Source: Sphyrna mokarran
Taxonomy: Eukaryota
NCBI GenBank assembly: GCA_024679065.1
Contig: JAGIQG010000016.1
Location: 56,234,001 to 56,298,000 of the forward strand
Length of the DNA: 64,000 nucleotides
Direction of reading: 5' to 3'
In this document: positions 1,037 through 62,104 of the stretch, one piece after another
Numbering within the stretch: the stretch's first letter is position 1
Layout of the letters: every line of letters begins with the position of its first letter
Notes under the pieces: generated by a model
What the model saw: only the letters and a program-made list of their open reading frames with translations
Database searches by the model: none
Told to the model about the DNA's origin: nothing
Program-made: the position numbers and the translations under genes

Positions 1037-1190
1037 CTTGTAAATTGAGTTTATCTCTTTATATGTCCTGTTTGTGAATAGAACTCCCATTCACCTGATG
1101 AATGGGCAGCCCTCCAAAAGCTAGTGGCTTTTGCTACCAAATAAACCTATTGGACTTTTACCTGGTGTTGTGAGATTTCTTATTATATTC
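1037..1190 (+). mobile_element. Penelope-like pseudo-LTR fragment with a degenerate hammerhead motif
   Basis: tcac-CTGATGA-stem II-(a)AAAGCT-A-gtgg at 1091-1127, then aataaa and tggactttta cctggtgttgtgag, shared with 59322-59411. Confidence 0.75.
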
Positions 1191-7849: not shown

Positions 7850-8115
7850 TGTAACTGTTTTAATAAATAAAAAGTGCAGAGCCAATTGTTGGGCCAATCA
7901 GGGAGACTTTGTATTAAACCAGGAGTGTCGGTTCTTCTGCCACCTCTGAAGGTCATGATGTAGGGATGCCGGCGTTGGACTGGGGTAAACACAGTAAGAA
8001 GTCTCACAACACCAGGTTGAAGGGACACTGACTGATAGCACTCTGTATACTGCTGTTGGAATTGTAAATAAAGGGATTCTTGTGAAGGGAGTTCTGTCTC
8101 TGTGAACATATTACA
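7850..8115 (+). mobile_element. Short solo-LTR-like element, same family as 44782-45010
   Basis: Shared gccaatcagggag, tgtaaataaagggatt and gtgaagg motifs; ends tattaca. Confidence 0.6.
7953..8017 (-). mobile_element. Penelope-like pLTR 3' tail fragment nested in the LTR-like element
   Basis: Reverse complement of acctggtgttgtgagacttcttactgtgtttaccccagtccaacgccggcatc; flanked by tgaagg at 7947-7952 and 8018-8023. Confidence 0.8.
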
Positions 8116-11104: not shown

Positions 11105-12455
11105 ACATAGAACATAGAACACTACAGCACAAACAGGCCCTTCAACCCACAAGTTGTGCTGATCATATCTATACCTACCAGGCCATAGAACTATCTGCAA
11201 CTCCCAATCCCATTAAATCCCTTGTACTCATCCAAAAGTCTCTTAAAAGACCCCAGCGAGTTCGCCTCTACCACCACTGATAGCAACCGATTCCATTCAC
11301 TCGGCACCCTCTGAGTGAAAAAATTACCTTTAACATCTCCTCTGTACTTGCCCCCCAACACCCTTAAACCTGTGTCCTCTCGTAGCGACCGTTTCAGTCC
11401 TGGGAAATAGCCTCTGAGAATCCACTCTATCTATTCCTCTCAACATCTTATAAACCTCTATCAGGTCGCCTCTCAACCTTCGTCTCTCCAGGGAGAAGAG
11501 TCCTAGCTCTCTCAACCTATCTTCATAAGGCATGCCCCCCAATCAGGCAACATCCTTGTAAATCTCCTCTGCACCCTCTCAATAGCTTCCACATCCTTCC
11601 TATAGTGAGGCGACCAGAACTGCACACAATACTCCAAGTGGGGTCTGACAAGGGTCTTATAAAGTTGCAGCATTTCCTCCTGACTCCTAACTGAATTTCT
11701 CTATTAATGAAGGCCAGCACACCATATGCCTTCTTGACCACATCCTCCACTTGCAGGGCAGATTTAAGAGTCCTATGGACCCAGACCCCAAGATCCTTCT
11801 GTTCCTCAACACTGCCAAGACTCCTACCCTTGATATTATACTGCTTCATCCCATTGGTCCTGCCAAAATGGACCACCACACATTTATCCGCGTTTAAGTC
11901 CATCTGCCACTTCTCTGCCCAGTCTTGCATCCTATCTATGTCTCGCTGCAACTTCTGACATCCCTCCAGACTATCCACAACACCACCAATCTTTGTATCG
12001 TCGGTGAATTTACTAACCCATCCCTCCACTTCCTCATCCAGGTCATTTATGAAAATGACAAACAGCAAGGGTCCCAGAACAGATCCCTGGGGCATTCCAC
12101 TGGTGATTGACCTCCATGCAGAAGAAGACCCATCCACAACTACTCTCTGCCTTCTGCGGGCAAGCCAGTTCTGGATCCACAAGGCCAAAGTCCCTTGGAT
12201 CCCATGCCCTCTCACCTTCTCAAGAAGTCTTGTATGGGGGACCTTATCAAATGCCTTGCTGAAATCCATGTAAACCACATCCACTGCTCTTCCTTCGTCA
12301 ATGTGTTCAGTCACATTTTCGAAGAATTCAAATGGCTCGTAAGGCACGATCTGCCCTTAACAAAGCTGTGTTGACTATTCCTGATCATATTGAATTTCTC
12401 TAAATGCTCATAAATCCTATCTCTCAGAATCCTCTCCATCAACTTACCAACTACT
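11105..12455 (-). mobile_element. CR1-clade (HER1-like) LINE with the best-preserved RT in the window; 5'-truncated and frameshifted
   Basis: ORF 11523..12347: YMDFSKAFDKVPH, GMPQGSVLGPLLFVIFINDLD, SKFTDDTKIGG; ORF 11330..11542 YEDRLRELGLFSLERRRLRGDLIEVYK; (gttctat)n tail. Confidence 0.97.
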
Positions 12456-37765: not shown

Positions 37766-38159
37766 TTAATGATTATTTTTAAAACAATATTGAAGACAGT
37801 GAACAGAGTGACATACAACCTTACTCATCTGCATGTGTTGACATCTGCTGGTTATAATCAAGGACATTAGTTTTGTACTGTAGAGTGTTTCCAATAGAGG
37901 TTATGTCCTTTCACTGTAACCTTTTTCTTTCACAGTAAATGGAACAGTAGTTCGTCACATTAATGAATTCCACAGATTGGCTGAAATTGGCACTTTCTGA
38001 GCACCCAAATTTCCAGAAAGACAATAGCAGACATTATATTGTGTTTTTTTTTAAATTTCAACTATGTTAATGGCACCAAACTTTTTTTTAAATTTCAAAG
38101 CAAAACAACAGAGCTAGGTTGTGGATAATACAAATTCTTAATTAGAAAATGTTGAATTT

Positions 38160-39215
38160 TCACACCAAAACTACAGTAGCTAAATTTGCAGGTGACACAA
38201 AGATAGATAGGAATGTATGTTGTGACGACAACATAAGGAGGTTGCAGATGGGTATAAATAGTTTGAATGAGTGGGCAAAAATCAGACAGGTGGAGTATAA
38301 TGTGGCAAAATACAAAGTTGTTAACTCTGGCAGCAAAAATAAAAAATCAGAGTGTTACTTAAACGGAGAACTGCTGCAGAATTCCAAGGCGTGGAGGGAT
38401 CTCGGTGTTCTCATGCATGAGTCATATAAAGTTAGCACGCAGATACAGTCAGCAATTAAGACTAATGGAAAGTTGTATTTTATTACGATAGGAACCAACA
38501 TGAAAGTAAGGATAATATGCTTCAGTTATACTAGGTATTGATGGGTCCACATTTTGAATATTGTGTACGGGATATGGTCCCCGTATTTAAGGAAGGATGT
38601 AAATACATTGGAGATGGTGCAGAGGAGGTTTGTTAGATTGATACCTGAATGAGTGGGTTGTCTGAAGGCAACAGGTTGTACAGTCTGATCCTGTTTCCAC
38701 TTGAGTTTAGAAGAGAGGTGACTTGATTGAAGTATACAACATCCTGACTGATCTTGGGATGGTGGACATGGAAAGAATCACTGGAATTTTACGGCCCTCC
38801 CACCATGAGAATCAGAGCGGGCAAGGAGCAGACAATGATCTCGGGCAGGATTTTACAGTTTTGGGACGAGTGAGGCTGTAAAATCCCATCCGATGGTTCC
38901 ACTTGTGGGTGAGTCCACGTGGTTTTAAAATTGGGAGTCAGCCTTTTAGAATGGAGAAGAGGAGAATTCTTTTCTCTCAGCGGGTTGTGTGACTCTGGAG
39001 CTCTCTGACTGAGAAGATAGTAGAGACAGAGTCATTGAATATTTTGAAGGTGGAGGTAGATAGATTTTTGTTAGGCAAAGGAATGAAATGTTATTGTAAG
39101 TCGATGGAAATGTGGAATTTGAAACACAAGCAGGCCAGCCATGATTTTACTAAATGGCGGGGCAGGCTTGAGGGGCCCAATGACCTACTTCTGCTCCTAT
39201 TTCATATAATTATAT
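38160..39215 (+). mobile_element. CR1-clade LINE, decayed RT to tail, with a family-B MITE at 38780-38892
   Basis: ORF 38149..38541 VAKFAGDTKI..LNEWAKIRQVEYNVAKYKV..RDLGVLMH. Confidence 0.9.
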
Positions 39216-56835: not shown

Positions 56836-56872
56836 AAATATGTGCATTTGTGTGTCTGTGTACATGTACATG

Positions 56873-57044
56873 GTAAGAAGTCTGACAACACCAGTTTTAA
56901 ATCCAACTGATTTATTTGATAGTAAACTCGCAAGCTTTCGATTCTATGGTCTTTGTCAGGCTATCAAATAAATCGGTTGGATTTAAAACTGGTGTTGTCA
57001 GACTTCTTACTGTGTTTACCCCAGTCCAATGCCAGCATCTCTAC
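56873..57044 (+). mobile_element. Penelope-like fold-back mini-insertion
   Basis: Arms 56873-56922 and 56961-57010 (49/50), antisense hammerhead in the loop, TSD tacatgtacatg. Confidence 0.85.
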
Positions 57045-57094
57045 TACATGTACATGCACAGATATACATGTGCACACAAATGACCAAGTGTATT

Positions 57095-58080
57095 ATCAGG
57101 GTGACAGAGCAAATATCAAATTAATGAATAGCAGGGAATAAATTTTTCACTGTTTGGAATCGTACCTTGTCCAAAGGAAGATGGTCCTGGTTGTTGGGGG
57201 TCAATTATTTCAGTCCCAGAAAATCAGTGCAGGAGTTTTTCACCGTAGTATTTTAGAGCCAACCATCTTCCGCTGCTTCACAATGATCTTCCCTCCATAT
57301 GAATGTCAAAAGTGAGAATGTGCAACCATCAGTAAACAGCATTCAGCACCATTCAGAGTCCTCAGATACTTAAACAGTCCATGTCCACATGTAGCAAGAC
57401 CTGGACAATATTGAGGCTTGGGCTGATATGTGGCAAATAGCATTCTTGCCAACTAGTGCCAGGCAATGACCATCTCCAGTGAGAGAGAATCTAACCATTT
57501 TCTTGTGATATTCAATGAAATTACTGAATCCCCCATTATCAGCATCCTGAGGATTACCATTGAACAGAAACTGAACCAGCCATATAAATACTGTGGTTGC
57601 AAGAACAGGTCAGAGGTTGGAAATTTTGCAACAAGTAATTCTCCCCCTGACTCCCCAGAGCCTATCTACCATCAAATCACTAGTCAGGAATGCAATGGAA
57701 TAATCTCCACTTGCTTGAATCAAAGTCAAAGCAGCCCATTGCAGCAGCCCGTCCACCACCATCAGTGCATTATATGTGCCATTCACAAGATGCATTGCAG
57801 AAGTTCGCCAAGGCTGTTTTGATGGCAGATTCTAATTTTGTGACCTCTGCGACCTTGAAGAACAACAACTACAGATGTATGGGAATAACACATCCTAGAA
57901 GTTCTCCTCTAAGTCACGTGCTATCCTGTCTTGGGACTATATCACTTGTTTCTTCATTGTCACTGGGTAGAAGTCCTGGAGTTTCCTCCCTAACTACACT
58001 GTGGATTCTATAAAGCATCTCAACAGCACTTCTTAGGGGTAGTTATGGAAGTCAGTAAATGCTGGCCTTGTTAGTAATAT
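57095..58080 (+). mobile_element. Decayed CR1-group LINE of a second lineage; probable partner of family-3 SINEs
   Basis: LESYLVQRKMVLVVGGQ..ISAGVFHRSILEPTIFRCF (GVPQGSVLGP-like) and QDLDNIEAWADMWQIAF; tail gtaaatgctggcc. Confidence 0.8.
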
Positions 58081-58096
58081 CCTAGTCAGTAATATT

Positions 58097-58392
58097 GGGG
58101 TGGCACAGTGGTTACTACTGGTGCCTCACAGTGCCAGGGATCCAAATTTGATTCCCACCTCGGGGGGATTGTCTGTGCAGAGTCTGCATGTTCTCCCTGT
58201 GCCTGCATGGGTTTTGTCCAGCTTCTTCCCACAATCTGAAAGATGTGTTGGTTAGGTGTATTGGCCATGCTAAATTCTTCCTTAGTGTAACTGAAAAGGC
58301 ATCGGACTGTGGCAACTGTGGGATTTTCAAAGGAACTTCATTGCAGTGTTATGTATGCCTATTTGTTGCACTAATAAATAAACTAAAAAAAA
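58097..58392 (+). mobile_element. V-SINE with tail 2
   Basis: Head, V domain and tail 2. Confidence 0.9.
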
Positions 58393-59228
58393 TACATGCA
58401 ATGAATGAACTTTTTAAAAGATTATGTCATGAATATTAGTGAATGAATGCTTACATTTGGTTAGTTTTACTGCAGCCTAACAATTTCATTAAAATAATGG
58501 ACTAAGAGATTTCATGTTTGTAAGTAGTTTTGCTTTATATTGTCCAAGACATAATTTCAGGGTTGCAACGTTCAGCAAAACCTTAGTTGGTATGGCAATG
58601 CAACAGCTGCTTTTGTTTCTAACCCTCTGGAACATTCTCTGTGACTGTCGCATTCAACACAAGGGACCCTGGACTGTCACTGCAACAATATGCTTGTTCT
58701 CATCAGGTGGCTCTTCTGTGTTCAATTAGCAATATTCAAGTATAATATGTGTCACTAGCCTATGTTTAAACATGGATAAATAAAGTTTAACTCCCCAGTG
58801 AACAACAGGAACTTGTTAAAGCATCTTTATATTTTTGAAAGCTTTTCAGGAAAGGAAGTCAATGCTGGAAATCATCCATCACTGAGAATCAGGAATGAAT
58901 TTACAGCATTGAATGTAGGCCAGTCCAACGCAAACAACTAAGTTTCTGAGACATGTTAAATGGGACAATTTAAAGACTAGAATTTGGTCTCCTTAAAGGA
59001 AACATTTCAGCAAAAAGAATGATATTAGTCCTGTTTTTTTGAAAAACGAAAGTACAGTTTGGTACAGAAATTGTGATGCTGGCCAAAAGAGAGATAGGGA
59101 GTTAATGGCCTTTAGAGGAGAAAATCTGCTGTCCTTATCTAGTCTGGGCAAAATGTGACTCCATATCCACAGCTATGTGGCTAACTCTCAATTGCCCTTC
59201 GGCAATTAGGGATGGGCAATAAATGCTG

Positions 59229-59447
59229 TAAGAAGCCTGACAATACCAGGTTTAAATCCAACTGATTTATTTGATGGTGAACTCACAAGCTTTCAAGCCT
59301 CTGGTCTTTGTCAGGTCTTTCACCTGACGAAGACCAAGAGGCTCGAAAGCTTGTGAGTTTACTATCAAATAAATCGGTTGGATTTAAACCTGGTGTTGTC
59401 AGACTTCTTACTATGTTTACCCCAGTCCAACGCCTGCATCTCTACAT
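59229..59447 (+). mobile_element. Penelope-like fold-back mini-insertion
   Basis: Arms 59228-59316 and 59322-59411 (about 91%), TSD caataaatgctg at 59217-59228 and 59448-59459. Confidence 0.88.
59320..59356 (+). ncRNA. Minimal type-I hammerhead ribozyme motif (Penelope-associated)
   Basis: UCAC-CUGACGA-A-GACC(AAGA)GG.UC-GAAA-GCU-U-GUGA; stem I UCAC/GUGA; palindromic AAGCUU at helix III. Confidence 0.65.
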
Positions 59448-59818
59448 CAATAAATGCTGGCCAGCCAGCGACACCCATGTCCCACGAATGAATTAAAAAA
59501 AAATTCACTTAAACATTGAAACTTTGTATGTGCATGTCCCAGATTGGCTTTGGGAAGTACAGTGTTTCAGTCATTATACTTGCAAATATTTCATGCTATA
59601 AAGTGACAAAATGTTAATTCCCAACCATGTTTTCAAGTCAGCCAAAATAAAATCTCAATCCTGAAGTAGTTTTAGAACAGAAACTTCAGTTGCAGCTCAG
59701 CATTCTTTAAGTTAACCACACGTTAAAGAGTTAAGCAAGTTTGATCTTAAAATCAAAATGTTAATATTATGACTACCCAGCATAAATTTGCATTATTATT
59801 TTGTTACTTACTTTGCAG

Positions 59819-59974
59819 GTCTTTGACCTCACTTGGCATCAAGTGCCTGTTCTGCCAACCTACTCAGTTTGACGTGCTTTTGGAAGTACTGCAGTTCTAC
59901 ATTGAAGACTTCTGACAAAGTAACCCAGTGTAACCAACAGAAAAACAAGCTACCAGTTGATGCTTACTCATCAG
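59819..59974 (+). other. Candidate non-coding or UTR exon (156 nt)
   Basis: Acceptor ttattattttgttacttactttgcag|G and donor CAG|gtgagt; stops in all three frames. Confidence 0.4.
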
Positions 59975-60041
59975 GTGAGTGCAAATGCCTCACCTGCATA
60001 ACCAACCACATCACCATTATAAACAGATCTCTTCTCTCTCG

Positions 60042-60071
60042 CCCCCCCCCCCCCCCCCACCCCCCACCCCC
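60042..60071. repeat. C17-A-C6-A-C5 tract; G-quadruplex potential on the minus strand
   Basis: Read directly from the sequence. Confidence 0.9.
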
Positions 60072-60539
60072 AACCACCAAGCAACATTTAGATGCAGACA
60101 TGCTTAGGAGATGATGAGAAAATAAAACAAGTGCTTTATGCTGCTCCACTGAGTTTGGTCTGCTTTTGAGCCTCGAGGAATGACTTACAGGTACACAGAG
60201 TGAGATGTGACAAGAAAATAAATGACCTAAATTCCAACTTGTCTTTTTTGAGCTGTTTGGTACTGTTCTTAATAAAAATCTTTCTGGAGCTATGCTGCAT
60301 AGTTTGTGGAGACCAGTCATGATTCATGCAGAGTTCCTGTTGTGCCCAAGGGTCGGAGAATCCAGGAACAGGGAGCATCTGGCTTGAAATTAACTATGCA
60401 TATTTAAATATGTTAATCTGGTTCCCAGCCAGAGAGGGCCAGAATCAGATTATAACTAGGTGTGCATGTTGGGAAAATCGCAAAGGTGTTTCAAACTGCC
60501 AATAAATGCACCCATCCCCTCCCCAAGGATTCTTCGACC

Positions 60540-61385
60540 TGTGATGATACTGTGCCTTTAAGAACCGTATTTGTGCCATGTTTCTTCTGAAGGGACTGCT
60601 TTATGCTTCATCTCTCATAATAATGCCAAAATATTTCCAGCTGGCAGCCCATCTGCTGAATCAGCGGAAGAATTAATAAGTCCTAATTAATGGATTGTTT
60701 GTTTTAATCTAGGCTAATGATACTTTTAGAGTTTTTCCTGGGGTTCAGAGTAGGGTTGGATTAGACTGACTGACAAGAGATTCATGCATGTGGGTGGAGC
60801 TAGGCATACAGAGAAAGGAAAAAAATAAGCAGACAGTTTCAGCTTGAATTTGAAAAGAGCAATAGCTCTTTCTCTCTATATATATATATGGAAATTTAAG
60901 TCTGTGGACCTGCTAGAAAATAAGAGTCCCTCTCTAGAAGTCTGCAAAAGGAAAAAAATGTTTTCTCTCCCTCTTTCTAACACTGAAGTCCTGCTGTGTA
61001 AAGATAGATTTTCCTCTGGAAGTTACTATCTGAGGGTTAGAAGATGGGTGTCTCTCTGTATCTCTGTCTGAGGAGTTACCAGGTTGTTGGACTGGGAATT
61101 CACATAAGCCTGTGTGTCTTGCTAACTGATGAATTTATGCCTATGGGGATATTGCTTAAATTGGAATTAATAGAAATAGTTAACAATTCAGAATTATATC
61201 TTATGCTTAAGGCTTTCAATTTTTGTTATATTCAACTGTGTTGTAAATTAGCATTTGTTTTTAATAAAAACCTCCAAATAGATCAATAGAATCATACCTT
61301 AAGTGGTATGCTCACACTCATGCCAAAATCAAAAATAGTTGGGAAGTAGGTTAACTTCATAATAAACAATGGAATTTCTCTTCCT
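60540..61385 (+). mobile_element. Solo LTR-like element, same family as 22014-22774, within a GC-rich DNA element (about 60300-61450)
   Basis: Starts tgtgatgata..ctttaagaa; 3' part gaatcatacct..tgccaaa..taacttca; host terminus aaaatcctgccc at 61450. Confidence 0.65.
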
Positions 61386-62104
61386 GAATAGACTCCACAC
61401 AGCCCCAACGTGAGCTGCGCCAGGTGCAATGCTGGTAAAAAATCCTGCCCTATAAATCTGATTGGAGTATTTTTTCCTAAAATAGTATTTCAAAGAGTTC
61501 TATTTAAAGCCCATTAATCTCTCTATTCCTGAACTATCCCATAGCAATCAAGAAACATGGAAGGCATTGCTGGAACTCAATGCTCTGTAAATCTGAATCT
61601 GCTTGCACATTTCTTGGGTGCAGTGCCCATCATGGTCATTGTGTATTTATGATTCTTATATTGATTGACCACATTATGAAGAACCATTAACTCCTCATTT
61701 ACACAATGATACTGTCCACAGAAACTACTCAATTTTACCCAGTTTCTCTTCAGCTGAAATCCTTATGTGGTTCCATACCTGAGAAATTAAATAGGCAATT
61801 ACACTTTATTGACATGCGAACAATCCACCAAACAACCTGTTTCTGCCTGAAATAGCCAATGTGTTTAACACTGCAAGGAGCAGCTTTATCATCAACAATA
61901 ATGATAATGGCAAATGGATTGTGCTATTTGCGAATTTCAATATGGGTAGCTTAAATTGTGGTTGTTTTTAAATGATAGTTAAACTGTTTTGTAATTTTTG
62001 TTAATAAACAAACTATCAGGAACCCTTAACGTTATTTGGTACGCTCTGTCAAAGCATAACAGAGTGAATGATAAAACAACATTTGTTAAAATAAAGCTGG
62101 TCTT

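Follow-up and report, generated by a model that had tools for sequence, protein, structure and literature searches.

A hammerhead-bearing fold-back insert in a Sphyrna mokarran SINE is likely a truncated Neptune-type Penelope-like element copy

The insert, its host SINE and its family of origin

The feature analysed here is a 219-nt insert at positions 59229–59447 of the window (the whole 64,000-nucleotide stretch of DNA under analysis), and is flanked by identical 12-mers, CAATAAATGCTG, at 59217–59228 and 59448–59459. A sequence-only reading had described an insert in a SINE between perfect 12-bp duplications, made up of an inverted repeat of about 90 bp, whose loop is 5 nt long, plus a tail of 36 nt. 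This anatomy was borne out by measurement: the TSDs agree at 12 of 12 nucleotides, and the SINE empty site is spanned by 21 of 29 BLAST hits. The left arm (59229–59316, 88 nt) differs from the right arm (59322–59410, 89 nt) by seven substitutions and one indel, with a loop of 5 nt (59317–59321) between them and a one-sided tail of 36 nt (59412–59447). The folding energy of the insert is −149.3 kcal/mol (z −26), and none of 200 shuffled sequences was equally stable. The features of the locus and its surroundings are as follows.

56868–57044, no strand assigned: second fold-back of the family, 2.2 kb upstream; asymmetric, with its left arm reaching −1 and its right arm beginning near +37
59104–59228 (start approximate), + strand: 5'-truncated tRNA-type SINE, portion 5' of the insert; homology to other copies from about 59103
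59217–59228, + strand: left TSD copy, 12 nt
59229–59316, − strand: inverted, tail-less pLTR arm, extending to 2 nt upstream of core C3; core G8 mutated
59317–59321, no strand assigned: hairpin loop and arm-arm junction
59319–59357, + strand: minimal type-I hammerhead (stem I, CUGACGA, extra A, stem II, GAAA-GC-UU)
59319–59411, + strand: direct pLTR arm that begins 5 nt upstream of C3
59368–59373, + strand: AATAAA within the pLTR
59412–59447, + strand: PLE tail, 36 nt
59448–59459, + strand: right TSD copy
59460–59505, + strand: SINE 3' end and A-rich tail
59819–59974, + strand: host gene exon, AG before and GTGAGT after, with RNA contig matches

The host SINE has a tRNA-like A/B-box head that is visible by eye in longer copies, and it may be a DeuSINE; the repeats look shark-like. 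In this SINE family, one other insertion of the element (L130) starts after CAATAAATGCTG, at the identical base, another (L140) lies a few bases from that site, and a third (L089) is located elsewhere within the same SINE. Going by these insertions, the SINE family may be a preferred target of the element. A separate 12-nt match to the tail, at 58920–58931, was taken as chance or an old remnant.

A 28-nt word of the insert occurs exactly 5,868 times in the genome, compared with 0 occurrences of a control pattern. When the arm and tail were used as a query, all 40 of the places scored (out of 933 candidates) matched at 92–96% (100% for the locus itself), and longer copies extend upstream into a GIY-YIG domain and RT. 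Eight long loci (L165–L172) display the whole element, with the order pLTR-tail-ATG-ORF-pLTR in six, and self-alignments reveal that most additionally carry an inverted pLTR copy. One of them, L165, is 90–92% identical to the arm and tail examined here, and in full-length copies the tail is the stretch immediately 5' of the ORF start codon. Two near-identical copies with the same flanks, L010 and L011, lie 6 kb apart on contig C1215 and represent a local duplication or an assembly duplicate.

RVT_1 was matched in long copies at E values of 6.8e-9 and 3.8e-10, the latter in L169, and GIY-YIG was matched above the cut-off in L035 and L044 (E 5e-5 to 7e-5). The single 806-aa frame of L169 contains RVT_1, a GIY-YIG match that is under the Pfam cut-off (E 1.1e-3; 19.7 versus 22.6 bits), a DKG motif, and a CX4CX2C linker at residue 668. 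A Pfam search of a 126-aa fragment from L027 found no domain, and matches were obtained with longer copies. Four of the long loci (L166, L167, L169 and L170) constitute a young sister subfamily whose direct pLTRs are 96–100% identical and whose open frames span 746 and 806 aa, which suggests that it was recently mobile.

The Penelope origin proposed in the sequence-only reading is thus confirmed by the link between the arms and full-length copies elsewhere in the genome that encode RT and GIY-YIG. The inverted pLTR that it had also proposed is present as a tail-less arm positioned head to head with the direct arm, as is also seen in relatives. Features that serve to recognise EN+ PLEs were found in the family and at the locus, namely RT and, C-terminally, GIY-YIG in one ORF, direct and inverted pLTRs flanking this ORF, a one-sided tail of 30–40 bp (36 nt here), and a TSD (12/12 nt here). 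The CX4CX2C linker motif, which fits the CX2-5CxxC pattern of Neptune linkers, suggests that the source element is likely a Neptune PLE; a Zn-finger-like linker between RT and EN is also a mark of Nematis, according to the accessible portion of PMC8557442.

The hammerhead motif

On the + strand, stem I is formed by 59319–59323 and 59353–59357, between which lie CUGACGA (59324–59330), the extra A (59331), stem II (59332–59344) and GAAA-GC-UU (59345–59352). Within stem II a single C is bulged or mismatched, a trait common to the subfamily with an imperfect third pair to which this copy belongs. With the core, the extra base and the palindromic 15.2–16.2 pair all present, the sequence supports the earlier claim that the right arm carries a minimal type-I hammerhead, and cleavage is predicted between 59352 and 59353. 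The hammerhead core on the opposite strand of the left arm is broken, in that G8 reads A. A scan of 57000–62000 with Rfam models yielded no hammerhead match at E ≤ 10, and the best Rfam match in this interval was a chance snoRNA (E 0.089). The lack of a hammerhead match likely reflects the absence of helix III.

The extra A is present in 102 of 102 core-bearing copies and the palindromic GC (15.2–16.2) in 90 of them, in a set (L002–L172) where one or more hits are false and some loci are duplicates. These copies carry 73 distinct stem-II sequences with an otherwise constant core, and constitute a natural covariation series. Pairs 2–4 of stem II are Watson-Crick in 58, 57 and 49 of the 73 variants, compared with shuffled maxima of 52, 43 and 34, such that covariation at these pairs exceeds all 2000 shuffles, and a hand-picked alignment of 22 rows chosen for variety is 90.5% paired, with related copies inflating both of these tests. 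This pattern points to selection in active lineages, not on the present copy.

The proposal that the upstream left arm would sequester the ribozyme in a read-through transcript agrees with structure modelling. With the left arm present, the predicted probability of stem I pairing is ~0, and core nucleotides are predicted to pair with the left arm instead (mean P 0.93). The programs used do not score the catalytic core; with them, a hammerhead-like fold of the monomer has a probability of 0.009, and the unconstrained dimer MFE structure differed from the hammerhead dimer. The inverted arm cannot act as a dimer partner. Although sequestration is predicted, little is gained from the further idea of a self-silenced ribozyme: monomers of a lone minimal hammerhead are reported to be inactive in vitro (PMC4209133), and decay of the arms is like that in other copies. 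The hammerhead of an Anolis PLE required the protein of the element (PMC11167929).

Arm divergence in this copy amounts to 6 of 80 columns, and the family median is 8.6% (n=32). All six changes reside in the tail-less left arm, and the right arm carries 0 substitutions in the 80 columns when compared with relatives. Arm asymmetry as a family trait was rejected, given symmetric counts of 115 versus 130. The arms of this copy have decayed ordinarily, like those of other copies.

Formation of the hairpin

The arrangement of arms was evaluated in a genome-order sample comprising 90 of the 100 listed 28-mer matches, on contig C1, with one match near L120 and the last nine left out. An adjacent inverted arm is present in 59 of the 90 copies, and in 49 of these the arm ends at the tail boundary. 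Counted from core C3, inner arm ends are spread between +77 and −1421, and near-symmetric junctions occur all along the element. Across family copies, the outer boundary is fixed and the inner junction is variable. TSDs of at least 7 nt were found for 31 of the 49 copies, compared with 12 of 480 mismatched controls, using a search for 7–17 nt that tolerated one mismatch from 10 nt upward.

We consider it highly probable that the insert represents an EN+ PLE (likely Neptune) that was truncated at its 5' end on insertion and is now a dead end, in which an inverted tail-less pLTR arm is joined to a direct arm with its tail, and that the two arms likely derive from two cDNAs made at staggered nicks. 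By this mechanism, the protein of the element would nick both strands of the SINE, 12 nt apart. Priming of one cDNA would take place where the tail ends, immediately 5' of the ATG, and that of the second where the tail starts, 36 nt upstream of the first priming point. Both would run ~90–130 nt to the RNA 5' end just before the hammerhead, where they would be joined. Because it lacks an ORF and a second same-sense hammerhead, the resulting copy would neither move nor cleave, and an 88-bp hairpin would arise from it as a by-product in the pre-mRNA of the host. A PLE protein is known to cleave and extend both strands, with two RT starts that bracket the tail (PMC11167929), and inverted 5'-truncated copies with a tail of 30–40 bp have been published for PLEs, as judged from the accessible parts of PMC8557442 and PMC3846280.

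Additional evidence on the inner junction comes from tight hairpins with both core starts intact, 55 of which were found and 50 listed and analysed. Their arm ends accumulate at −4 to −9 before the ribozyme core, around an initiator-like TCATTC (67 of 100 ends). This compares with null means of 32 for independent arms and 40 for correlated arms, and 0 of 2000 simulations reach 67. At −10 to −15, 9 of 100 ends were found and 24–34 were expected. The arms of the present copy end at −5 and −2. Judging by these end positions, the pile-up likely marks the start of the RNA of the element, against which it counts that the 5' pLTRs of six full-length copies begin at six different points.

The pile-up is clear only in the tight hairpins. 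Among the 90 genome-order copies there is no clear truncation hotspot, with tail-bearing arms (45 reaching the core) showing 6 ends at −4 to −9 versus 2 at −10 to −15, and tail-less arms showing 2 versus 2. A cap-derived extra G was seen in 19 of 46 cases, which is not significant (p 0.16). A spliced template was considered as the source of the cluster and rejected by eye, as the fillers have no common sequence and no AG is located there.

A possible but less likely origin for an insert of the same identity is a single cDNA that folded back, by self-priming or microhomology, and was then copied as far as the second priming point. In that case the pile-up would reflect local microhomology around TCATTCACC. 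The near-symmetric junctions all along the element are in keeping with this process, as are the common occurrence of 1–4 nt of microhomology and the recurrence of some junctions, and palindromic junctions were interpreted as self-priming in the portion of PMC3846280 available. However, the cluster persists among 34 junctions that carry filler and have no microhomology, and the mean of the correlated-arm null is 40 compared with the 67 ends observed. Copy-back alone also gives no reason for the second arm to end precisely where the tail begins.

A second tight pattern comprises 267 hairpins, of which 40 were examined near the predicted cut, with degenerate letters that blur the ends. Among these 40 hairpins, arm ends located exactly at the cut site (+28) are not significantly enriched (5 of 80 versus 3.1–3.5 expected). 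Ends at +28 to +30, a range picked after looking, number 28 of 80 in the same 40 hairpins compared with ~14 expected. For windows around the cut, the two counts out of 1000 were 3 and 71 (27–29), 35 and 255 (26–29), and 0 and 1 (28–30). The excess at +28 to +30 is a hint only. We regard as doubtful the broader proposition that fold-back stubs form a fossil map of RNA 5' ends, in which −4 to −9 (this locus included) would be the transcription start and +28 to +30 the ribozyme cut. If true, both arms would be run-off cDNAs, one started from each side of the tail, and the map would provide in vivo evidence of PLE hammerheads cleaving the RNA that gets copied.

Genomic context and relation to known systems

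A + strand exon (59819–59974) starts ~360 nt downstream of the TSD. RNA contigs from three runs match from 59817/59819 to 59959/59974 with 0, 8 and 9 differences; all runs used have a small word share (0.04–0.12) and were used as contigs only. The X1 contig match ends at AG and GTGAGT on the + strand, and ~260 nt more of this contig lie upstream. The exon has stops in all three frames and an ATG 15 nt before the donor, and may be a 5'-UTR exon that holds the start codon. Because this spliced exon lies downstream on the + strand, the insert is likely intronic and in sense orientation, ~360 nt before the acceptor, and it is plausible that its hairpin forms in the pre-mRNA. No RNA contig connects the insert with the unique sequence flanking it. 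Contig coverage over the insert stems from other family copies and coverage of the SINE-adjacent flanks is 0, such that neither expression nor silence is shown.

The window contains three further pieces of the family. One is the second fold-back, which has a different junction and is possibly located in the same intron and able to pair with the first in pre-mRNA. The others are a 64-nt stub with a tail at 7958–8021 (− strand) and an older hammerhead copy of the sister subfamily, without a tail, at 1117–1189 (+ strand). Decayed LINE-type RT fragments were recognised by eye in ORF translations at 661–1050, 11523–12356 and 38146–38541.

Exaptation of the insert as an intronic RNA element, acting through ribozyme silencing or through dsRNA, editing or small RNAs that affect the host gene, is very unlikely. 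The exon covered by contigs of three runs 360 nt downstream, the great stability of the hairpin, and the contrast between 0 substitutions in the right arm and 6 in the left arm would fit such a role. However, the family as a whole lacks this arm asymmetry, the copy was chosen for its intact core, and no contig joins the insert to its unique flanks. Two of the seven changes disrupt + strand pairing, and thus there is no sign of selection on this copy. Moreover, similar hairpins number in the hundreds, with 55 and 267 for the two tight patterns alone. There is no sign of exaptation.

Least probable, and already largely refuted, is a non-autonomous family, whether fold-back or, as suggested earlier, retrozyme-like, whose units are copied whole. 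A search for identical fold-back units at other sites found one exact genome match to the junction, which is the locus itself, and three with one mismatch. These three have different flanks, as a copied unit would, and one of them (L144) has the stem-II variant of this copy, but in the other two (L142 and L143) the stem-II variants of both arms are different ones, the tail of L142 is on the opposite arm, and by eye the left-arm changes of this copy are absent from all three. Because junctions nearly all differ (44 of the 50 tight hairpins have distinct junctions), each hairpin is a separate product of the autonomous element. Tandem units define non-LTR retrozymes in the accessible text of 10.64898/2026.07.22.740005, and the window holds one sense hammerhead motif and no direct tandem. 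The unique junction, together with the anatomy of a broken-off PLE copy, likewise rules against a self-copying mini-element.

The locus is a real feature of ordinary identity. It is likely a Neptune-type PLE that was truncated when it inserted into a SINE, and it probably lies within an intron. On its own it matters little, as one of thousands of decayed PLE stubs. However, neither the formation of inverted PLE pLTRs nor the role of PLE hammerheads is settled (PMC8557442, PMC11167929). A junction map of the family could bear on both, and this genome offers thousands of natural products as well as a young sister subfamily. The junction pile-up was not found described in the PLE literature searched, which excluded most subscription papers and supplements that may hold similar data.

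The insert shares with EN+ PLE insertions, including Pen2a_Av, a head-to-head inverted pLTR, a tail on one arm, a TSD of ~10 nt and a palindromic junction, as described in the accessible parts of PMC8557442 and PMC3846280. Relative to the insertions described there, this locus is extremely truncated and has no ORF left. In addition, the Pen2a_Av tail is located inside the ORF (PMC3846280, available portion), whereas the tail of the present family ends at the start codon. Anolis Poseidon PAc (PMC11167929) likewise has a hammerhead in the pLTR, a tail set by two RT starts, cutting and extension of both strands, and an AT-rich target. However, PAc belongs to the Poseidon clade and its RT starts lie 111–118 nt inside the ORF, whereas the family examined here has a Neptune-type linker and a tail before the ATG.

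With the minimal hammerheads of metazoan PLEs (PMC4209133), the motif shares the extra nucleotide that separates position 9 from 10.1, the G10.1-C11.1 pair, the palindromic 15.2–16.2 and a short helix I. That study had already reported dual motifs on opposite strands, at distances of ~100–700 bp, as well as single motifs that stem from truncated PLEs. In contrast to those examples, helix II here is only 4 bp long and is bulged in this subfamily, and fewer than 20 nt separate the two motifs. Non-LTR retrozymes, as far as the accessible portions of 10.64898/2026.07.22.740005 and PMC7229834 describe them, are similarly PLE-derived, non-coding and equipped with a type-I hammerhead, but consist of head-to-tail tandem units, whereas the present locus has one pair of units, arranged head to head, and only one ribozyme in the sense orientation.
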